Part shown: in pieces, positions 3,701 to 18,328 of the stretch
Layout: each line of letters starts with the position of its first letter
Position numbering within the stretch: position 1 is the first letter of the stretch
Source of the DNA: a virus
UHGV virus genome: UHGV-1605165
Strand: one strand, 5' to 3'
Length of the DNA: 19,376 nt
Notes under the pieces: generated by a model
What the model was told of the DNA's origin: nothing
Database searches by the model: none
Seen by the model: the letters and a program-made list of their open reading frames with translations, nothing else
Translations under genes and position numbers: made by a program

Positions 3701-3959
3701 CTTTATCGAAAAATTTCTTTAATTCAGAATAGCGTCGACCGACAGTATCAATTGCGGCACCAACTGGATCAATAGCTGCTTTTAATTTTGCGAGCGCGTT
3801 CTTCTCATCTTCTGTTGCCTTAGTCACTTTCCCTGCGCTATTTGCAGCAGTTTCCCCGGCCTGCGTCATTTTGACTAATGAGGAGGTCAGATTGTCAGCA
3901 TTATTTTTTGCTCCAGTGCTATCAATAATTATTGCGAGACGCGAGGTTTGCTCTGCCAT
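726..3959 (-). CDS. H: tail tape measure protein (lambda gpH-like)
   Basis: 1077 aa, coiled-coil rich. [39 protein letters not shown] and C-terminal [16 protein letters not shown]...[10 protein letters not shown] resemble lambda gpH. ATG 3959 with GGAG 8-9 nt upstream. Sits downstream of G/G-T and upstream of M and L. Confidence 0.9.
3210..3812 (-). repeat. three tandem, diverged ~60-70-codon coiled-coil repeats inside the tape measure gene
   Basis: Protein-level repeats share the pattern (I/L)DP(V/L)xxAxxx(L/V)...G(L/K/M)(I/L)...(Y/F)E...(K/R)(L/I)...EL(S/T/E)(G/V): [20 protein letters not shown]... / [20 protein letters not shown]... / [20 protein letters not shown].... Coordinates approximate, mapped from residues ~50-250. 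Confidence 0.5.
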
Positions 3960-3975
3960 TTATTAAAACTCCAGA

Positions 3976-4000
3976 CAACAAAAAGCCCACCGAAGTGGGT
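3976..4000 (-). terminator. putative weak intrinsic terminator or attenuator just upstream of the tape measure gene
   Basis: Minus-strand RNA: ACCCAC-UUCG-GUGGGC followed by UUUUUGUUG (5-bp GC-rich stem, UUCG tetraloop, U-run). Lies in the 163-bp gap between the G-T stop and the tape measure start. Confidence 0.35.
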
Positions 4001-4122
4001 TTCAGGCGACATAATAGTAGATATAGCGATTACGAGGCCACGCAATGCTTTTCTCCAGGAGCATCATCGATTTAATTAAAGACACCATCACATCTCTGTA
4101 ACAGAGTGTACGTAATTAACAA

Positions 4123-6699: not shown

Positions 6700-7083
6700 T
6701 TACGCTCTCCTTAACTGGATAGAGTAAACTGATGCGGAAGGATCTAAACTTGCTGTAATTACCTCGTATCGTTGTAACTGCCTTGATACAGGATCATAAA
6801 TCTCAATAATATGGTCGACAGCTGGTTTATCCGTAACCTCGCATACCAGAGCGGTTAATTTAAGGTCACCATGCAAAATATTAATCCCATCAATTCTGCC
6901 CAGCTTATAACGTGTCAACACGCCTCGCCCGGTATAGATTGCGGTGGATTCGCCGCCAGTTTCCGTCACAGGATCCCAGTGCCGGTGCGTAACGTAAGAA
7001 CCAGAAAAATCACTCACGGCGTCCGCTAAATCCTCATCAAAAGCAGCGGCAACCTCTGACTGAATCTCTTCACGAAGCCCCAT
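6700..7083 (-). CDS. head closure / head-tail connector protein (putative)
   Basis: 127 aa; start ATG 7083..7081 overlaps upstream stop (TAATG); position-based call. Confidence 0.45.
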   Translation of the reverse strand: MGLREEIQSEVAAAFDEDLADAVSDFSGSYVTHRHWDPVTETGGESTAIYTGRGVLTRYKLGRIDGINILHGDLKLTALVCEVTDKPAVDHIIEIYDPVSRQLQRYEVITASLDPSASVYSIQLRRA

Positions 7084-7478
7084 TATCCCCCCCTCACAAC
7101 CCTGACTTGTGAGCGACTAAGTCCGTACGGTTTCAGCAGTGCTATCGCAAGCTGTAAATCGGGTTCAAGCAATGCAGTGCTGTTTGCTGGCAACTCAGAA
7201 AATGATTTCGATACACTGACCCCGTCAGCCGACACGGCTTTACTGATAACAACGCCAGAATCATTTTTCTGCTGAAACAACTTACCGAATGAGGCAATTC
7301 TGGCTGCATATGCTCCCGCAAGTTTTACCTCTTCCGGAATACGGGATGGGTTAATTTTCAGGTTGAAGCCATTAAGCCAGGCATTAGCCATTAAAACAGC
7401 TTTATTTTTAGCGTTCTCACTCGTCCAGGCGTTCCCAAACGCATTATCAACGTCATCACAGGTCACGTAAGTGATCAT
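7083..7478 (-). CDS. head-tail adaptor protein (putative)
   Basis: 131 aa; ATG 7478 with AGGAG 7 nt upstream; first gene after the coat-proximal terminator and small ORF; position-based call. Confidence 0.45.
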   Translation of the reverse strand: MITYVTCDDVDNAFGNAWTSENAKNKAVLMANAWLNGFNLKINPSRIPEEVKLAGAYAARIASFGKLFQQKNDSGVVISKAVSADGVSVSKSFSELPANSTALLEPDLQLAIALLKPYGLSRSQVRVVRGG

Positions 7479-7481
7479 GTG

Positions 7482-7658
7482 TTACTCCTGAGTTTTCCAG
7501 CCCATAGCCTTCCAGTTGTCAACTTCATCAGGATGAACATTAGCGATAGTTGGTGCGCCGGGAAACATCTGATAATCGGTCACCATAACCACTAACTCAA
7601 TTTGCGTTTTTTGTGCGGCTTCACGCTGTGCTCTTTGCTCTTTAGTTAATCCGGCCAT
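7482..7658 (-). CDS. small hypothetical protein (58 aa), not in the supplied ORF track
   Basis: Hand translation of minus strand from ATG 7658..7656 to TAA 7484..7482: MAGLTKEQRAQREAAQKTQIELVVMVTDYQMFPGAPTIANVHPDEVDNWKAMGWKTQE. Fills the coat-adaptor gap without overlap and ends 3 nt before the adaptor ATG. Confidence 0.35.
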   Translation of the reverse strand: MAGLTKEQRAQREAAQKTQIELVVMVTDYQMFPGAPTIANVHPDEVDNWKAMGWKTQE

Positions 7659-7669
7659 ATGCCCCCCAT

Positions 7670-7690
7670 TAAAAATGGGGCCGAAGCCCC
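7670..7690 (-). terminator. intrinsic terminator immediately downstream of the coat gene
   Basis: Minus-strand RNA: GGGGC-UUCG-GCCCC followed by AUUUUUAAU, starting ~10 nt after the coat stop (7703..7701). A competing hairpin CCCCAUU-AAA-AAUGGGG overlaps it. Confidence 0.5.
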
Positions 7691-7700
7691 GTTTGAATGT

Positions 7701-8840
7701 TTAACCAAGAATCAGACAACCATGTGCCGGCTTCACTGATGAAACACCCCATGCCAGTCCAACTTCATAGCGCACCTGGCGATACTGACGATACAGTGCA
7801 ATCTGGAACGTAATCCCTGAAATCGGGTCCGTAACATTCATTACATCATCAGCATTATCGCCACCTTCCGGCATTGCCGGAGTACGGGATGCCAGCAGAA
7901 ACGCGTTGCGATCAAACGCCATATTTGCAGTAAAGGCCCCAACAACTGTGATGGCAGTATCATCGGCCAGATCCTGACGCAGTCCGGGCGCTGCAAGAGT
8001 AATCAGATTGCTGGTCGCTGCTGCCACAACATACTGATTCGGATCACCAGCGAACGTAACAATCTGACCTGCAGAAATACTCCCCGAACCAGTATCAATG
8101 GAAATAAGAACATCGCCTTCTTTTTTCTCTCCATTCACGAGATAACCAGTTGCAGCAACCTTTGGCGCTCGTTTCACACCTGCCGAACTGTGAATATTGA
8201 ATCCCTCCAGACGCCCCAACACGCCCTCACGCAGTAGCTGTTCAGTGCCGGATTCATTCACTTTAAACAATACAGACTGTTTTCCGCGCAAATTAGCAAT
8301 GGCAGTGGAGCCAAGCACCATCTGCAGATCGGTTGTCGGTGCGCCGTTATCCTCCAGAACCTGACGAGCCAGAGCAGCATCAGAAAGATCATCTTTAACA
8401 CCAAACGGCGTTGTCCCTGCGGTTCCCACGGCGCGGGAAGCACCGAAATACAACGCACCAAGATCAGCCTCAACCTCGTTTGCAAGGGCGCGAAAAGCCT
8501 GCTTGAACTGATCAGCCAGAATGGTGTTGTAAGTCCCTGAAGGACCAAGAGCCAGTTGTTCTTCACCATTCCATTTAACCGGTGCCATTTTGGATTTAGT
8601 AATTTTTACATCAACAGTGCCAATATTTTGATCACCGGTATTCGGAGCTGACGGCCCCGGTACGATATCTTCGGTTTTCGCCTCAGGCGCAACTGGCGCG
8701 GTTACCGTCTGATCTTTTGCTGCGGCGTCAGCTTTTGCGTTTTTTGCTACCGCAGGGATAAAACCTACCTGCTCACGGGATACAACATCCAGGGCGGTAT
8801 AAATAGTCGGGATCAACCCGGTCAGGGTATTTCCAGCCAT
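7701..8840 (-). CDS. major capsid (coat) protein, P22-coat-like
   Basis: Likely start ATG 8840 (MAGNTLTGLIPTIYTAL..., AAGGA upstream) rather than the track start 8933. ~379 aa; position after scaffold and gene order TerS-TerL-portal-scaffold-coat suggest a P22-type module; followed by a terminator. Confidence 0.75.
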   Translation of the reverse strand: MAGNTLTGLIPTIYTALDVVSREQVGFIPAVAKNAKADAAAKDQTVTAPVAPEAKTEDIVPGPSAPNTGDQNIGTVDVKITKSKMAPVKWNGEEQLALGPSGTYNTILADQFKQAFRALANEVEADLGALYFGASRAVGTAGTTPFGVKDDLSDAALARQVLEDNGAPTTDLQMVLGSTAIANLRGKQSVLFKVNESGTEQLLREGVLGRLEGFNIHSSAGVKRAPKVAATGYLVNGEKKEGDVLISIDTGSGSISAGQIVTFAGDPNQYVVAAATSNLITLAAPGLRQDLADDTAITVVGAFTANMAFDRNAFLLASRTPAMPEGGDNADDVMNVTDPISGITFQIALYRQYRQVRYEVGLAWGVSSVKPAHGCLILG

Positions 8841-8938: not shown

Positions 8939-9703
8939 TTAATCAACGATTGTGATACCGTCTTTCAATGCGTTTTGCTTACCTGCAACATCCAGTGCAT
9001 CAAAAGCAGAGCGTTTCATCGTTTTCTGACCAATATCATGCTGTGTCGGACGGGAGCCGCCGCCATTGTTGCCACTGGCTTTCAGGATGTAGTCTTTCTG
9101 AGGGTAATTTTCGACAAGGAACTCCAGCGCCTCATCAAACTGCGCCAGTTCGCCAGGCTTCGCGCGGGAATAAATTTTGTTGCCGGAAGCGTCATAAGCA
9201 ACGATCCTCCCTTCTTCCACTTTGAATGCCTGCCCGAAGCGTGATTGTAATAAATCTGCCGGGATCGCAATTTTATCGGCAATATATTTTGAACCCGCAA
9301 AACTACCGCCAATCATAGAATCGTAAAGCTGCTTCTCCAGCATCTGAGAGCGTTGCTTTTCTTCATCTAATTGCTGCTGAAAATTTTTCGTAATTTCTGC
9401 CTTAACCTGGTCAACCTGTCCCGCATCGAGCAGCTTTTTCTGGTCGATTTTTGACAGCATTTCCAGTGCCTCGATCGCCTTCTTCGGGTCTTCGATAGCG
9501 GCAAACTTAGCCAGTTTTTCCTCTGCAGCTTCTTTAGCCAGGCGATGATTTTTTGCCTCGCTATTAAGCTCTGTAATTTTTTTTGTCGCCAGCGGTGCAT
9601 CGAAGCCAATTTCTTTACCATCGTCGTGCACATAAACTGGCAGGCCAGCAGTATCAATTTCTGCGTATTGTTTTCCGTTAATCTCGACCGTTTTCAGTTT
9701 CAT
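8939..9703 (-). CDS. scaffolding protein (putative)
   Basis: Real start most likely ATG 9703 (MKLKTVEINGKQYAEID...), because the track's extended start at 9775 would read through a terminator hairpin. Glu/Lys-rich helical middle region (AKEAAEEKLAKFAAIEDPKKAIEALEMLSKIDQKKLL); position between head morphogenesis and coat. Confidence 0.55.
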   Translation of the reverse strand: MKLKTVEINGKQYAEIDTAGLPVYVHDDGKEIGFDAPLATKKITELNSEAKNHRLAKEAAEEKLAKFAAIEDPKKAIEALEMLSKIDQKKLLDAGQVDQVKAEITKNFQQQLDEEKQRSQMLEKQLYDSMIGGSFAGSKYIADKIAIPADLLQSRFGQAFKVEEGRIVAYDASGNKIYSRAKPGELAQFDEALEFLVENYPQKDYILKASGNNGGGSRPTQHDIGQKTMKRSAFDALDVAGKQNALKDGITIVD

Positions 9704-9760: not shown

Positions 9761-9788
9761 AATAAAAAAGGCCACCCGAAGGTAGCCT
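9761..9788 (-). terminator. intrinsic terminator between head-morphogenesis and scaffold genes
   Basis: Minus-strand RNA: AGGCUACC-UUCG-GGUGGCCU (8-bp stem with one U-G wobble, UUCG loop) followed by UUUUUUAUU. On the plus strand the same stem has a C-A mismatch, so it is oriented with late transcription. Confidence 0.6.
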
Positions 9789-12312: not shown

Positions 12313-13620
12313 TTAAATCCGAAGTGATGTGACTCTTCCGGTCGGTTTGACAATAGGGAATTGCTTAACGATGAAATAACCTCCGGCATCATTCGGGTGA
12401 TCATTGCCAGATTTTTTATCAGGCTCCCCCTTCTCATCCCAGACCTGTTGCTCCAGAGATTCGGCATATAACGGGCAACGCTTCACATTAACTTTATAGC
12501 GACGCTCACCATTGGCATTGCAGAACATTGCATTCATTGAGTTAACGCGATCTTTTACTGGCGGGTTCGAGCTGTTCACCACAACGTTAAAACCAGCCTG
12601 CTTAAGCTGGGCTATATCCGTCGTACTTGCGTTACTTGATTTTCTGGAATCCCCGGAAGCATCTGGATAAATATAAATTTCCCTCACTTTCCGGTAATCA
12701 TTCCCATCATACAGCCAGAAGCGTTCTTTAATGATGCGGATCATATCCGGCGTATCGTAGGCATTGATGATTTCAGTTACCGCACATGGAAGCCCCAAAC
12801 GCAGCACATGGACGATTCCCGCCATCTTTCCAACGTTAAAATCCATCCCAATATAAATCGGCTCCCCTGGCTGCTCCACTTCTTCGCAATTATTCAGTTT
12901 CCGGTCAAACTGATGGTAAACAGTACCACTTGTCAGGTTAGTAAACTGTCCTCGCAGATAGGCTTTAATCAGCTCTGGAGGGTATGATTCAAGAAGCGAA
13001 GGAATGTAATCTGCTGGCAGGTTCTTTTCATTATCGAAAGTAGATGCCTGCACCAGACCATACAGTGAGGCCAGCTCTGTTTTTTCACGCACGGCTTTAA
13101 CAAACTGCTCGTAGACAAATTTGAATCCTTCCGGCGTGGTTGTAACGTCAATACCGTTGCGAAGTCCATCAATCTTATAACGCATACGCGCAATTATCTT
13201 GCGCCACGCCGTTCTGGCTTTTTCCTTCGGCAAAATGTCCAGTTCATCCACCAACGCATTACCAATTTTGAAACCGACGATCGTTTGTGGCTTCTCCATC
13301 GATCTGCAGATAGTGGTTCCCCGATACTGGCGTCCGTAATAAAAGTGAACCTCTTTATTTCCCTCATTAATTTTTACGTTCAATCCCCAGTCAGCAGCAA
13401 CTTCTTCCACTGTAGGGTAAAAAATATCGCGAATTTGGGGATACGTTGGCGCAAAATATCCCTGATTTATACCTGGATGCTCCCAAATCCCCTTGCATAT
13501 GCCGCCACACCCAACCCATGTTTTGCCCGAGCCAAAACCAGCAATATAGGCTTTAAATTTATGGGGCATTGAAAGAAATCGCGCCTGAGGCACATTAAGC
13601 GTCGGAGAGATCATCTTCAT
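12313..13620 (-). CDS. terminase large subunit
   Basis: Walker A ATPase motif GFGSGKT near the N-terminus; ~435 aa; start probably ATG 13620 or 13614 (AAGGAG upstream), overlapping the TerS 3' end. Confidence 0.85.
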   Translation of the reverse strand: MKMISPTLNVPQARFLSMPHKFKAYIAGFGSGKTWVGCGGICKGIWEHPGINQGYFAPTYPQIRDIFYPTVEEVAADWGLNVKINEGNKEVHFYYGRQYRGTTICRSMEKPQTIVGFKIGNALVDELDILPKEKARTAWRKIIARMRYKIDGLRNGIDVTTTPEGFKFVYEQFVKAVREKTELASLYGLVQASTFDNEKNLPADYIPSLLESYPPELIKAYLRGQFTNLTSGTVYHQFDRKLNNCEEVEQPGEPIYIGMDFNVGKMAGIVHVLRLGLPCAVTEIINAYDTPDMIRIIKERFWLYDGNDYRKVREIYIYPDASGDSRKSSNASTTDIAQLKQAGFNVVVNSSNPPVKDRVNSMNAMFCNANGERRYKVNVKRCPLYAESLEQQVWDEKGEPDKKSGNDHPNDAGGYFIVKQFPIVKPTGRVTSLRI

Positions 13621-14689
13621 CACTCCTTACTCTGGCATCAACCACATTAATATTGATCGCCACAGGCTGGGGATGTTCATTATCTTCCACCGTTTCGATC
13701 TCTTTGCGCAGCTTCTGGTTTTCCATTCTGCGCCGTTCAATTTCCAGTTCCTGTAGCCGCTTATCTGCACATAAAGCCCCGCCAGCAGAAAGCAAACGCA
13801 ACAATTCACGCCGGGCGGCAGCCTTATCCTCCAGCAGGATCTCAACGCCGAATTTTCCGAATTTTGCCCCTGCATATAATTGCCGCGCATCCCCATCAAG
13901 CAGAGTGGTATCAGCCATATAAAGCTGTCCCGTTCCCTCACCGCAGCACTTCGGGCAGTCCGGATTGGGTATGGCGTTATCAACAAAGCCGAGGCCTCCA
14001 TATTCCGGTTCGGGTTTGCCATCTCTGGAAGCCTGCGCCGCTGCCTTGTCGAATTCTGCTATATCGCGCCACTGGTAGAGATGATTCTCGCCCCAGCAAT
14101 AACGGCAGTTAACACGGCGAAATTGTGCAAGCTGATTGGGGTCGGCCAGGACAATGGCCATCAACTGACTCACTAGTAAATCCAGGTCTGCGGTATAGCG
14201 TTTCTGGTACTGATTGCGGAAGTAGCTGATAGCGCGAAAAACCCTGGCATTTCTAAGCATACGACTGGCGTTGCTGTTAGCTGTCGCACCTTGCCCCTCA
14301 TAACCGGCTAGTCGGTACGCCTCTGTCGGCTTTTTACCCTGAGCAACAAGCATCGCAAACTTAGCCTGCTGGTCAGAAATGCCGAATTCATCGGGACAGA
14401 ACGAAAATTCCTCCGCGTCGCCCTCATTCAGGCCCGCATCGAATACTGGCTTTTTTTCCTGAGATTTTTCGTTCCGCTTTTGTGCAGTCTGCGCAGATTT
14501 TTTCTGCGCACTTTTTTGCGCAGTTTTGCGCATTTCTGTCTGCGCATTTTTCGGAGTTTTTTTGATGTAACGACGGGCTGTTGCGTAATTCAGTCCCCTT
14601 GCTTCACACCATGCCACCGGAGATATACCGGAGCGGGTGTATTCAGCAATATACTCCTGCTGCAACGCCCCCCAGTCCGGTCTGCTCAT
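13595..14689 (-). CDS. terminase small subunit (atypically long, 364 aa)
   Basis: Central segment MLVAQGKKPTEAYRLAGYEGQGATANSNASRMLRNARVFRAISYF resembles the TerS HTH (Terminase_2-like). Also has an N-terminal HTH-like segment, a Lys/Gln-rich low-complexity linker and a Cys cluster (CRYC...CPKCC). Directly upstream of TerL. Confidence 0.6.
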   Translation of the reverse strand: MSRPDWGALQQEYIAEYTRSGISPVAWCEARGLNYATARRYIKKTPKNAQTEMRKTAQKSAQKKSAQTAQKRNEKSQEKKPVFDAGLNEGDAEEFSFCPDEFGISDQQAKFAMLVAQGKKPTEAYRLAGYEGQGATANSNASRMLRNARVFRAISYFRNQYQKRYTADLDLLVSQLMAIVLADPNQLAQFRRVNCRYCWGENHLYQWRDIAEFDKAAAQASRDGKPEPEYGGLGFVDNAIPNPDCPKCCGEGTGQLYMADTTLLDGDARQLYAGAKFGKFGVEILLEDKAAARRELLRLLSAGGALCADKRLQELEIERRRMENQKLRKEIETVEDNEHPQPVAININVVDARVRSDEDDLSDA

Positions 14690-14692
14690 CAG

Positions 14693-14944
14693 TTAGTCCT
14701 GATTTTTATCCACCCTGAGTAGTTCGCGCAGAGCAAAGGCATCCCCTTTTCTGGCAAGCTTAAACAATGCCGCTCGTAACTCGGCTTCACCTTTCGCTCT
14801 GCCCTTACGGATGGCCGCATAAAAATCTGTCATTGCTTCCCGATTTTCTTTCAGTCGGTTCAGATCAACATCCAGAACGTCAGCGATTTGTTGTGCAGTC
14901 ATCCGGCACGCTGCCAGAGACTCGACTTTCGAATACGGAATCAT
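14693..14944 (-). CDS. small HTH-like DNA-binding protein (83 aa), translationally coupled to TerS
   Basis: Stop TAA 14695..14693 lies 3 nt before the TerS ATG. QQIADVLDVDLNRL resembles winged-HTH openings such as lambda Nu1 KQLADIFGASIRTI. ATG 14944 has a GGGGG stretch upstream, but the gene overlaps the preceding gene by 65 nt, so the start is uncertain. Confidence 0.4.
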   Translation of the reverse strand: MIPYSKVESLAACRMTAQQIADVLDVDLNRLKENREAMTDFYAAIRKGRAKGEAELRAALFKLARKGDAFALRELLRVDKNQD

Positions 14945-15812
14945 TTGTCACCCCCATTGATATGCAGGGTGTCTTCTTCCTGTATTTTTCGTGAAGGATT
15001 TTTACTGCAGCGTTGTTCCAGGTGACCTGATGGTGAATGCGTTTATGGCTGGCACCCATCAGTGAAATTTTTACGCACGACGGCGCATACATGACGGAGT
15101 AAAAACTTTTAACGTAGGTTCCGGAATCCAGATACAGCTCGGTCATTCCGCCGCTGTTTTTCTGCGTCTGTTTCTGCCCTAACTGGACAGCACCGATCGT
15201 CATAAACAATTCACCACAGCGACCGAGATTCGTGTACGTATTCACATCCTCGTTAATGCGCCCCATGAATGAGAACGGTCGATCAACCGAACAGATAAAG
15301 CTGTTCATTGCCTTGCGTTTCACCCACGAAGCATGGCCGCCATTGTCACCAAGAAAATCCCCGCCCTGCGACATAGCGATGGAAAGAGCAGGTATTGATT
15401 CGTAGTACGCCAGCATTTCAGAAAGGATCGCATCCAGTTTCCTTATCGGAAAATAGGCCTGGTCATAGTTGCGATCCACCCGAAACTGGAACTCGTGATA
15501 ATCATCATCGAGCTGAATGAAGTATTTACACCCGACCAGTTTTGCCAGGTCGAAACAGGCATTACGGGCGTAAAAAATTGAGCGGCGGTCACAGAAATTA
15601 TCGGCTTCGTCAAAACGACTGGCGATATCGGCTTTGGAAAACACCAGCACCTGTTCACCAAATTCAGCCATGTACTGATGCCGTGTCTTATCTTCATCAT
15701 CAACAACGATAAAAATTTTCCCGGTATAGCCAGCACGACGCAACGTCCGGTAAGTCAGAACTTTGTCCGGTCGCCCGTGAGTCAGAATAAAGGCGCAAAA
15801 ATCATCACGCAT
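14880..15812 (-). CDS. GT-A-fold glycosyltransferase-like protein (nucleotide-sugar transferase-like), function unknown
   Basis: Likely start ATG 15812 (MRDDFCAFILTHGRPDK...) preceded by GAGGAGGAGGAA. Motif series CAFILTHGRPD, KIFIVVDDEDKT and YFIQLDDDYHEF follows the GT2/GT-A pattern (beta1, IVVDDxS/T box, DxD). No transmembrane segment evident. Confidence 0.5.
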   Translation of the reverse strand: MRDDFCAFILTHGRPDKVLTYRTLRRAGYTGKIFIVVDDEDKTRHQYMAEFGEQVLVFSKADIASRFDEADNFCDRRSIFYARNACFDLAKLVGCKYFIQLDDDYHEFQFRVDRNYDQAYFPIRKLDAILSEMLAYYESIPALSIAMSQGGDFLGDNGGHASWVKRKAMNSFICSVDRPFSFMGRINEDVNTYTNLGRCGELFMTIGAVQLGQKQTQKNSGGMTELYLDSGTYVKSFYSVMYAPSCVKISLMGASHKRIHHQVTWNNAAVKILHEKYRKKTPCISMGVTNDSVFESRVSGSVPDDCTTNR

Positions 15813-16596
15813 ATTCCTCCTCCTCACCACCATGCATGATCTCCACCATGCGCTGCGTCATCCGGACAAATCCATTTTCAATAGCCTGCTGATAATCAAT
15901 GATCACCAGCGCCGACTCCTCGAAAAAACACTGAATTTCAGAGGGGGCGTGAGCGTAATAGTCCGCAATTCTGCTGAAATTAAACACCGTGTGACGTTCT
16001 GCCGCACACAGGAGGAATTTCTCAATATCAGGCTCAAGGGACGCCGAACGTATCCGGCTGATCAGCTCCTGAGTTTTCGTATCGTCGTACAGTTCACTGA
16101 TATCCGGTTTACCGCCCGACGGCTCATAAACAGGCGTATCAATTTTCGTCGTATACGGCTCCTCCTCATTTCCTGTACCGGGCAAAACATCCGTCAACAG
16201 TTCATCAATTTCTGTCGGGATGAAGCCTGTCAGGGAGACATCAAAATCAGCATTGATTAGGTCCGACAGCTCCATCCGCAACAGATCTTCATCCCAGCCA
16301 GCATTCATCGGCAGGCGATTATCTGCCAGGCGGTACGCCTTTTTCTGCTCATCCGTCAGGCCAGACAGAACAATGACCGGAACAGAATCCATTTTGAGCA
16401 TTTCAGCCGCCATAACACGACCGTGACCCGCAATAATTTCGCCCTTTTCGTCAATCAGCACCGGATTAGTCCAGCCGAATTGCTTAATACTTTCTACCAG
16501 TTGTGCCACCTGCTCAGTACTGTGCGTCCTGGCGTTGTGCGCATACGGTGACAATTCTTGTAATGGGCGATAGACTATCTTTAATTTCTCGCTCAT
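15805..16596 (-). CDS. ParB/Srx-like nuclease-domain protein
   Basis: N-terminal SPYAHNARTHSTEQVAQLVESIKQFGWTNPVLIDEKGEIIAGHGRVMAAEMLKMDSVPVIV matches the ParB N-terminal domain signature (GxxR box). ~160-aa acidic C-terminal region with no motif I recognise. ATG 16596. Confidence 0.7.
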   Translation of the reverse strand: MSEKLKIVYRPLQELSPYAHNARTHSTEQVAQLVESIKQFGWTNPVLIDEKGEIIAGHGRVMAAEMLKMDSVPVIVLSGLTDEQKKAYRLADNRLPMNAGWDEDLLRMELSDLINADFDVSLTGFIPTEIDELLTDVLPGTGNEEEPYTTKIDTPVYEPSGGKPDISELYDDTKTQELISRIRSASLEPDIEKFLLCAAERHTVFNFSRIADYYAHAPSEIQCFFEESALVIIDYQQAIENGFVRMTQRMVEIMHGGEEEEYA

Positions 16597-16610
16597 ACAG
16601 CCTTGCTTTA

Positions 16611-16647
16611 TGAATAAAACGCACCCCAGCAGCCAGTGCTACTGGGG
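16611..16647 (-). terminator. putative intrinsic terminator downstream of trkG
   Basis: Minus-strand RNA: CCCCAGUAG-CACUGG-CUGCUGGGG (9-bp stem with one U-G wobble) followed by UGCGUUUUAUU; in the 137-bp gap between the trkG stop and the ParB-like start. Confidence 0.45.
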
Positions 16648-16733
16648 ACGGAGGTGTTGCTGGTAAAGTTAGGTATTGGATCAATGAGTGAGTCAACATA
16701 ATATTAAACTCACAATTATAAATCAGCCATATA

Positions 16734-18191
16734 TTAGGAGCGCCAAAAAAAACCTGAAAACAATATAATAACAGGATAAATTTCAAGGCGACCAAGAATC
16801 ATAGCTATGCACATTAAACATTTTGCAATGTCATTAAGCACTCCGAATGACGATGCAGTAGCCCCAAAACCTAATCCCATATTATTAATACATGCAGCCA
16901 CTGTTGCAAATGATGTAAGAAAATCATATCCCATACCATTTAACACCAGTATAAAAAACACCGTGAAGAGAGTATAAAGAAAAAAGAAACTCCATACAGA
17001 CCTCATTACACGATCTGTAACTATCTTCCCTCCTACATTTACACTCAACAACGCTCTGGGATGAGAAAGCTGATTTATCTCGTGTTTGCTTTGTTTGAAA
17101 AGTATAAGAAATCGAAGTGACTTAATTCCACCACAAGTTGAACCTATACATCCCCCAAAGAAACTTGACAACAGCAAAAACACTATCGTGTGCGTGGGCC
17201 AACTTGCATAATCCTGCGTAGCTAAACCATTATCAGTGAGCATGGAGCTGGCAAGAAAAAACGAATGAATAAAACTTCCATGCAAGTCATACATACCTAT
17301 ATGCCAGACCTGGAAAGAGGTAACAATGATCACACCTAAGGCTATTAACAGAAAGAAACGAAGTTCAATATCTCTGATTAAAGGTTTTATCGTTTTCCTG
17401 CTAATAACAATATACCAAAGAGTGAAGTTGAAAGCCGATAGCAGGGAAAAAGAACCAGCCACCAGCTCAACCAAATAGTTATTAAAATATCCGATACTCT
17501 CGCTATGAGTTGAGAAACCACCAAGCGAAACTGTGGAAATCCCGTGACAAATAGCATCAAACAAAGGCATTCCTGCAAGTCTATAACAGACAATACAAGC
17601 AATACCTAATAAAGAATAAGTTATCCACAGTGTCCGTGACGTATCGGCCAGGCGGGGAGTGAGTTTGTCATCCTTAAATGGCCCCGGCATTTCTGACTGA
17701 TAAAGCTTTGCACCACCAATACCCAATAATGGCAATACAGCAACCGCCAGAACAATAACTCCTAAACCACCTATAAAATTTAACTGTGACCGATAGTACA
17801 AATATGCCCGAGGTAATGAACTAACATCATCAATTACAGTTGCTCCTGTTGTTGTTATTCCAGAAACCCCTTCAAACAGAGCATCAATGAACGTTAAATT
17901 AAGTTCTGAGTCAATCCATAAAGGGAATGCACTAATAACAGAAAACAAAATCCAAAACATTACAATTATAATAAACCCATCACGGGTACGTAATTGAATG
18001 CCAGATTTCTTAGTTGTATACCACGCTCCGCCACCAATGCAAAAAAATATAACGAAAGTTATAAAGAAAACAAACAGGCTTTTTTCTTTATAAAACAATG
18101 CTACAACCATTGGTGGCAACATTGAAAGACTATAGAGCCAAACCAGGAACCCACACATATGAGTAACAACTCTTACATGAGATGTATTCAT
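16734..18191 (-). CDS. trkG: Trk-system K+ uptake protein TrkG (TrkH family), prophage moron
   Basis: Polytopic membrane protein with TrkH-family segments FEGVSGITTTGATV, GGLGVIVLAVAVLPLLGIGGAKLYQSEMPGPFKDDKLTPRLADT and C-terminal GRLEIYPVIILFSGFFWRS. Likely start ATG 18191 (MNTSHVRVV..., 485 aa) rather than the TTG at 18209. Markedly AT-rich compared with flanks. E. coli K-12 trkG lies in the Rac prophage next to Rz-like genes. Confidence 0.9.
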   Translation of the reverse strand: MNTSHVRVVTHMCGFLVWLYSLSMLPPMVVALFYKEKSLFVFFITFVIFFCIGGGAWYTTKKSGIQLRTRDGFIIIVMFWILFSVISAFPLWIDSELNLTFIDALFEGVSGITTTGATVIDDVSSLPRAYLYYRSQLNFIGGLGVIVLAVAVLPLLGIGGAKLYQSEMPGPFKDDKLTPRLADTSRTLWITYSLLGIACIVCYRLAGMPLFDAICHGISTVSLGGFSTHSESIGYFNNYLVELVAGSFSLLSAFNFTLWYIVISRKTIKPLIRDIELRFFLLIALGVIIVTSFQVWHIGMYDLHGSFIHSFFLASSMLTDNGLATQDYASWPTHTIVFLLLSSFFGGCIGSTCGGIKSLRFLILFKQSKHEINQLSHPRALLSVNVGGKIVTDRVMRSVWSFFFLYTLFTVFFILVLNGMGYDFLTSFATVAACINNMGLGFGATASSFGVLNDIAKCLMCIAMILGRLEIYPVIILFSGFFWRS

Positions 18192-18328
18192 ATCTAAATA
18201 TTCTTTCAATTATAACCACCTTGCTGCAATATTATGATTATACTGTATAAAATTTAACTCCTCTTAGATCTTACTTCACTGTTCCTTATGAAACAATCAT
18301 CAAAATGAATCATATTGTAGTTAAGATT

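Follow-up and report, generated by a model that had tools for sequence, protein, structure and literature searches.

A conserved small gene linked to a P22-like coat gene and its possible role as an accessory factor of the phage head

We analysed a 19,376-nucleotide stretch of the virus genome UHGV-1605165 (hereafter, the window) with a focus on a small open reading frame (ORF) located between the genes for the major capsid (coat) protein (MCP) and the head-tail adaptor. The ORF lies on the minus strand at 7482-7658 and consists of 58 codons followed by a TAA stop codon (ATG at 7658-7656, TAA at 7484-7482); it encodes MAGLTKEQRAQREAAQKTQIELVVMVTDYQMFPGAPTIANVHPDEVDNWKAMGWKTQE. With the coat stop codon ending at 7701 and the adaptor gene starting (ATG) at 7478, 222 bp (7479-7700) lie between the two, a gap that is filled by the ORF. 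It is the longest ORF in this gap, where every other one has at most 38 codons, and only 3 nt (CAC) separate its stop codon from the adaptor ATG. These coordinates, including a start just after a terminator hairpin that follows the coat gene, are as described in an initial annotation made from the sequence alone. That annotation also presented the ORF as missed by the ORF track. It is indeed absent from the track, because of a length threshold, but it is not a new gene and is annotated elsewhere, as detailed below.

The minus strand of the window is the late operon of a prophage. The operon begins with endolysin and Rz spanin genes, three accessory genes and the genes for the small (13595-14689) and large (12313-13623) terminase proteins, and continues with genes for a DUF4055 portal, a Mu-F-like head morphogenesis protein, a DUF6651 scaffolding-type protein (8939-9703, phrog_784/phrog_206) and a P22-coat-like MCP of 379 residues (7701-8840, PF11651, phrog_283), followed by the 58-codon ORF. 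Downstream of the ORF lie the genes for the head-tail adaptor Ad1 (7083-7478, phrog_493), Hc1, Neck1, the tail terminator, the tail tube, a chaperone and the tape measure protein.

The ORF is flanked by conserved expression signals. Directly after the coat stop codon, the minus strand carries a hairpin of the intrinsic-terminator type (7671-7690), in which the stem-loop GGGGC-UUCG-GCCCC (7690-7677) is followed by A and UUUUU (7676-7671). Its stem is invariant in seven diverged loci, and a hairpin followed by a T-run is present in 120 of 122 distinct loci. Between the hairpin and the ORF, 3 nt before the ATG, is a Shine-Dalgarno-like G-run, GGGGGG (7662-7667, minus strand), which differs by one base from the GGAGG(G) of relatives. 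Canonical AGGA/GGAGG motifs occur in 113 of the 122 loci and GGGGGG in 5 of the 122 distinct sequences; this allele is thus a minority variant among distinct sequences, yet it is the common one in E. coli. The weak, G-run Shine-Dalgarno sequence pointed out in the initial annotation is therefore real in this allele but specific to it, relatives carrying GGAGG. At the other end of the ORF, its last two codons contain AGGAG (7485-7489, minus strand), the Shine-Dalgarno sequence of the adaptor gene, which is placed 6 nt upstream of the adaptor ATG; in 120 of 121 loci, 2-3 nt separate the ORF stop from the next ATG. In its layout, this is a classic translational-coupling arrangement. Together, the hairpin, the separate Shine-Dalgarno sequence and the coupling would group the gene with the neck genes, in a block of lower expression, and not with the coat gene.

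Two further features of this junction were noted. At 7650-7695 of the minus strand, the G-run is base-paired with the 3' arm of the hairpin (GCCCC) in the predicted minimum-energy fold (-16.5 kcal/mol); the fold predicted for a relative with GGAGGG has the terminator hairpin and leaves the Shine-Dalgarno sequence free, with z-scores that were unremarkable or not significant. According to this model, pairing of the G-run with the hairpin arm could lower translation of the ORF on readthrough transcripts. In addition, 14 sense codons lie between the coat TAA and the ORF ATG (7656-7703, minus strand), which share a reading frame, so that stop-codon readthrough would produce a fusion of the coat and the small protein. 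Such a fusion was considered as a conserved feature and set aside: the frame relation is found in only 5 of 11 related loci and is probably incidental.

The ORF is a real protein-coding gene under purifying selection. Its protein matched PHROG 1514, a family of unknown function, over its full length (E = 3.5e-43, residues 1-58 aligned to profile positions 1-58 of 58), and homologues numbered 416 in a large protein collection and 472 clusters at 50% identity (exhaustive profile search). Ten near-identical phage records already annotate the ORF as a "hypothetical protein", as do those of HK639 (gp07, 62% identity), Klebsiella phage ST405-OXA48phi1.3 and Flyfo siphovirus Tbat2_3, and in all of these the gene is flanked by those for the major head protein and the next neck protein. 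The locus is also present in 761 of 5426 complete E. coli genomes (~14%), where the ORF is called by PGAP. When codons were compared across seven loci (NG86), synonymous divergence (dS) was saturated and the protein conserved, with a nonsynonymous-to-synonymous ratio (omega) of ~0.03-0.07 over codons 1-14 and, over the final 38, mostly of 0.1-0.5. Conservation of position and frame in related phages and a dN/dS signature of selection, both of which the initial annotation had proposed to look for, were thus found, and together they rule out a chance ORF. The gene call itself is ordinary, since the gene is already catalogued. Sharing both position and 62% identity with HK639 gp07, the window protein is the same in kind as this protein and PHROG 1514 members; the window allele is set apart by the shortest linker (58 residues in total vs 61-133 in relatives) and by the GGGGGG Shine-Dalgarno variant. 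Searches of Pfam (E <= 0.1), NCBIfam and PDB sequences with the window protein returned no match.

The protein is composed of an N-terminal peptide, a linker and a core domain. The N-terminal peptide, MAGLTKEQRAQREA (codons 1-14, 7617-7658, minus strand), conforms to the motif MAGLTKEQRAxR, a stretch of 12-14 residues that is almost invariant in alignments of the enterobacterial class and is under stronger constraint than the folded domain. Because the wobble positions of these codons vary freely in the DNA alignment, the constraint acts on the peptide and not on the RNA. An RNA element as the source of the conservation was ruled out on this basis, and no Rfam match was found in the window. 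The initial annotation had described a charged helical N-terminus: AlphaFold2 does predict a helix at residues 6-14, with a low predicted local distance difference test score (pLDDT), but a charged helix does not do justice to a segment that is this invariant. We also considered the MAGLTK peptide as a remnant of the first helix of a HeH motif, for which the comparison with a profile of HeH-like tails from the family was not significant (P = 0.18).

The linker is a Q/E-rich tract that is hypervariable in length. It is reduced to a remnant of ~5 residues in the window (AQKTQ, codons 15-19, 7602-7616, minus strand), measures 20-30 residues in most relatives and takes the form of (EQQ)n, (EQ)n, (Q)n or (DQQ)n tracts in others, with a family range of 0 to >60 residues. 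At the DNA level, it is a trinucleotide or hexanucleotide repeat that is hypervariable between otherwise similar prophages (for example in locus L006 at 3776-4114, and in IMG/VR loci L138, L142, L135 and L219 from ~3001). Its behaviour is that of a microsatellite, prone to slippage, within a coding gene, and the window carries its shortest form.

The core (codons 20-58, 7485-7601, minus strand) is a domain of ~38 residues with the consensus (I/L)xLVxMVxDxxxFPGxPxxAxVHPDEVxNWxAxGW, recognised by profile search. Residues M25, P36, A39, V41 and H42 do not vary among 37 very distant members, and AlphaFold2 predicts a compact beta-beta-alpha-beta unit with a pLDDT of 91-95. A fold search with the core gave no significant PDB match, and its BFVD matches were confined to family members and uncharacterised proteins. 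The core is conserved from enterobacterial phages to cyanophages, in differing nucleotide contexts. A single weak match to DUF4177 was obtained among family members (E = 0.008, one member). Members of DUF4177, a family of small domains, likewise have a GW-containing helix-strand motif at their end, and a remote relationship with the core is possible.

Across the family, the core is combined with different appendages. It occurs alone, in proteins of 45-56 residues, with the MAGLTK peptide, or with tails that are N- or C-terminal to it. One type of tail is a helix-loop-helix segment (LxxxELKAxAxELGIxF....AxxLIxxI) joined through the linker before or after the core, and such HeH-like tails gave recurrent, sub-threshold Pfam matches to Rho_N and HeH; in some other members, the core is followed by a basic tail, such as KPKGRPKK or PRRGRPPKG. 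SAP, HeH, LEM and Rho_N are helix-extended-loop-helix motifs of a single clan and typically make contact with nucleic acid; basic tails centred on GRP are similar to AT-hooks. The appendages of the relatives would thus be of a DNA-binding type, either HeH/SAP-like or AT-hook-like.

The position of the gene relative to the coat gene was invariant in all the contexts covered. A homologous MCP gene lies directly upstream of the core in 209 of 212 assessable IMG/VR loci, a sample with 104 different core sequences that fall into 22 clusters (70% identity); the other three also have an MCP gene upstream, with a truncated alignment. The same order is observed in HK639-type phages and in cyanophages Me-ZS1 and Ssp-JY42, and in three metagenomic representatives picked for their distance the upstream MCP is 35-56% identical to the window coat. 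Comparison with HK639 is informative on the limits of this module: the scaffold (65% identity), the MCP (75%) and the small protein (62%) are all conserved, whereas the adaptors have no significant similarity. This places a mosaic joint directly 3' of the small gene, which therefore belongs to the scaffold-coat module. Consistently, the downstream neighbour is inconstant: the adaptor is unrelated in HK639, Me-ZS1 and locus L010, where the small protein is retained, and in some loci a gene other than an adaptor lies downstream. On this pattern of linkage, the core is specific to a single P22-like coat protein family.

The slot itself is filled differently in certain phages whose coat is related (31-53% identity along most of the protein). 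It contains a HeH-domain protein in Pasteurella phage Pm86, a "LEM-like domain protein" in Acinetobacter phage qsb1 and other small proteins in Vibrio phage SSP002 and Rhizobium phage P106B, and it is empty in Paraglaciecola phage JLT2. A slot that is variable or empty in this manner argues for an accessory factor rather than a core structural part of the head. Two distant members (L007, 1404-1763; L008, 1984-2424) have a head module that is followed by homologues of gp77 and gp80 of the Ralstonia podophage GP4, respectively a fiber-tail adaptor (PF23148) and fiber I (PF23140); since these loci carry GP4-type fiber genes, the module of coat and small protein is common to siphophage-type and podophage-type genomes.

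The closest functional parallel is with phage lambda, where the FI gene is found in this same slot, preceded by the MCP gene E and followed by the head-tail joining gene FII. Its product, gpFI, bridges the capsid and the terminase-DNA complex when packaging is initiated, raises packaging in vitro ~200-fold and can be bypassed by mutations in terminase or in the capsid (PMC13595911). A contact of gpFI with the major head protein has been proposed (Popovic et al. 2012, as cited in PMC4493119). We found that the 43 N-terminal residues of gpFI reach the Pfam threshold for SAP (E = 2e-5, 24.5 bits vs a cut-off of 23.9); this SAP-like segment is followed by an acidic linker and then by the C-terminal domain solved as 2LSM. 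Moreover, the HeH-like tails of the family aligned in register with gpFI residues 1-40 (hhalign, P = 0.007, in a single planned comparison). Both proteins are small and acidic, are encoded directly after the MCP gene and before the head-tail joining genes, and would be built of two modules on a flexible acidic linker, one of them SAP/HeH-type in gpFI and HeH-like in relatives of the window protein; the likeness extends to a module that differs between families and is specific to an MCP family. The differences are equally clear. The core has ~38 residues, as compared to ~60 for the gpFI C-terminal domain, and no relationship between them is detectable; the window protein has a 14-residue peptide in place of the HeH/SAP domain and almost no linker; and its coat is P22-like, not lambda-E-like.

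Other phages carry comparable proteins in this slot. In TP901-1, the small ORF37, which follows the gene for the major head protein and precedes the first one for a head-tail connector, encodes MCP3, a 65-residue protein that is non-essential, raises plating efficiency and has been proposed to be gpFI-like (PMC4493119); its sequence is unrelated to the window protein by all searches, and the TP901-1 capsid protein is of the SPP1/HK97 type. Nearer to the window, ORF60 of Pm86 and the LEM-like protein of qsb1 both follow a homologous MCP (43-53% identity). Pm86 ORF60 has a HeH domain that is above threshold (E = 2e-8), and its N-terminal segment shows by eye the VH...GW spacing of the core. In contrast to the family, the N-terminal segments of the Pm86 and qsb1 proteins are not detected by the hidden Markov model of the core, and the window protein, unlike them, has no HeH domain.

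Taken together, these comparisons identify the product of the small gene as an accessory protein of the head module, with a coat-family-specific core, a linker of free length and a short near-invariant N-terminal peptide. By analogy with lambda, we favour, tentatively, a role as a bridging chaperone of packaging or assembly that works like gpFI with a different head-binding domain, matched to the P22-like coat; this may well be correct, but we would not yet call it probable. Such a protein would be non-structural or only transiently bound. Its core would dock on the coat lattice of the prohead, and the other module would recruit the DNA-packaging machinery. In this phage, the recruiting module would be the MAGLTKEQRAxR peptide, presumably through contact with a protein partner such as terminase; in relatives, it would be the HeH/SAP-like motif or the basic AT-hook-like tail, presumably through contact with DNA. 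The outcome would be a more efficient initiation of packaging. A stoichiometric structural role is argued against by the conserved hairpin and U-run after the coat gene and by the variable or empty slot in phages with a related coat. It is also conceivable, with lower confidence than the role itself, that the core (VHPDEV...GW) is a hitherto unrecognised capsid-binding module, specific to one coat family, and that the family represents a second widespread class of FI-type chaperones, each a coat-specific anchor with interchangeable recruiting modules.

A number of observations weigh against this gpFI-like role. The Packaging_FI family (PF14000) was matched neither by the window protein (E <= 0.1) nor by any of 37 family members (E <= 10). 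When the core profile and a 225-sequence core alignment were compared with gpFI by hhalign, the probability was below 1%, with a gpFI profile that is shallow, the homologues listed being all closely similar (mostly >=86% identity). Neither 2LSM nor 2OUT was among the fold matches of the core, and the N-terminal peptide of the window protein showed no significant similarity to the HeH-like tails or to gpFI. The window protein also has no match to models of the HeH/LEM/SAP/Rho_N clan, and the HeH assignment of the true family members consists of sub-threshold matches only. Binding of the core to the coat is suggested solely by gene linkage. The stoichiometry argument is soft, as the hairpin may not cut expression in phages that use antitermination. 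Lastly, the literature on HK639, Me-ZS1 and HeH/LEM proteins beside capsid genes yielded no functional data on the family, and no proteomic, cryo-electron microscopy, expression or mutant data were found in the literature for phages that carry it. True homology to gpFI was considered because a pattern, RDEP...P..A..V...G[LW], can be seen by eye in both proteins; hhalign, Pfam and fold searches gave it no support and we retain the parallel as an analogy only. Since there is no sequence, profile or fold match, we do not file the small protein as a member of the gpFI family.

A different possibility is that the protein is part of the virion, either as a minimal decoration or cement protein or as a minor head protein, with its core on the outer capsid surface and the linker and N-terminal peptide projecting outward. 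The initial annotation had suggested a small head accessory or decoration-type protein, and both forms of this proposal suit a gene that is strictly linked to the coat gene and inherited together with the head module. The hypervariable repeat linker also resembles a surface-exposed, slippage-prone tract, and the qsb1 record labels the protein in the slot a "structural protein", an annotation only. However, no similarity to known decoration or cement proteins (lambda gpD, T4 Soc, phage L Dec and similar) was detected by sequence or fold (Pfam, NCBIfam, PDB, BFVD), and a core of 38 residues would be unusually small for a clamp. The terminator-type hairpin that is conserved between the highly expressed coat gene and the small gene and the phages in which the slot is empty or otherwise filled also speak against this arrangement, and HeH-like or AT-hook-like tails make little sense outside a sealed capsid. 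We thus keep the head-accessory part of the initial proposal, found no positive evidence for decoration and consider a virion component of either kind unlikely, if less so than the alternatives that follow. The protein could also be an internal head protein, incorporated with the scaffold on the inner face of the coat, where it would organise or anchor packaged DNA through the HeH or basic tails; the DNA-binding type of appendage seen on many members and linkage to both the coat and the scaffold genes are in keeping with this. However, the enterobacterial class, including the window protein, is acidic and has no DNA-binding module, and a DNA-filled head would be an unfavourable place, both electrostatically and sterically, for (EQQ)n tracts of up to >60 residues, which makes an internal location improbable.

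The remaining explanations turn to the downstream side of the gene. A factor of the neck or portal vertex, such as an adaptor helper or a head-completion factor, could be made in step with the adaptor by translational coupling: the ORF stops 2-3 nt before the adaptor ATG, contains the adaptor Shine-Dalgarno sequence and lies downstream of the terminator hairpin, beside low-copy neck genes. This is difficult to reconcile with the loci described above in which the small protein is kept next to an unrelated adaptor (HK639, Me-ZS1, L010) or next to no adaptor, and with the coat gene being the sole invariant neighbour, and we judge a neck function to be as improbable as an internal one. Tight coupling to the next gene and the conserved arrangement of hairpin and Shine-Dalgarno sequence could even mean that the ORF is a leader whose peptide is unimportant, which would re-initiate ribosomes after the hairpin and so set the expression of the neck genes; the predicted pairing of the G-run of the window allele with the 3' arm of the hairpin would suit this too. 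However, the amino-acid sequence is conserved while synonymous sites are saturated, and the core folds with high predicted confidence and is maintained as far as cyanophages despite a differing nucleotide context; the null Rfam result is a further point against a leader. In a variant of this explanation, the protein would be a regulator of late genes, as also suggested in the initial annotation, which sits poorly with the invariant head-module context. Either form is very improbable.

The gene is common, being found in ~14% of complete E. coli genomes and in hundreds of clusters that extend from enterobacterial prophages to cyanophages, but it has no name, Pfam family or proposed function. The modest interest of the locus rests on the functional hypothesis and on the breadth of the family and not on the gene call. 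If the gpFI-like role is correct, the recurrent "small ORF after the capsid gene" could be annotated by rule as a coat-specific anchor with a recruiting module of FI-like function. If the family is indeed a second class of FI-type chaperones, FI-like bridging would be a general, modular feature of DNA packaging in tailed phages and not a peculiarity of lambda. HK639 and inducible E. coli prophages would offer a tractable system for studying the coupling of proheads to terminase by packaging chaperones. Should the protein prove to be a virion component, its core would be among the smallest capsid-binding modules known, with a naturally length-variable display linker that could suit phage display.

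Several other features were recorded. A second terminator-type hairpin, AGGCTACC-TTCG-GGTGGCCT followed by a T-run, lies on the minus strand at 9769-9788, between the Mu-F-like gene and the scaffold gene, and a terminator is annotated at the equivalent place in HK639; the late operon seems to be punctuated by hairpins with a UUCG loop. In the RefSeq E. coli genomes H42, H44, H55 and H60, the equivalent of the Ad1 adaptor gene (7083-7478) is named "protein singed", which looks like a spurious transferred name. The three accessory genes between the lysis and terminase genes (14880-18209, minus strand) encode a 491-residue protein (phrog_1916, full-length match), a ParB-like nuclease or partition-type protein (phrog_620) and a glucosyltransferase-like protein (phrog_842), and may have a role in DNA modification or anti-defence. 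Finally, in an E. coli protein of 223 residues (P0121), the first 165 residues of the prophage ParB-like protein (encoded at 15805-16596 in the window) are fused to the small ORF at Met1, which points to a deletion of ~8 kb that removed the genes from terminase to coat and left a decayed prophage.

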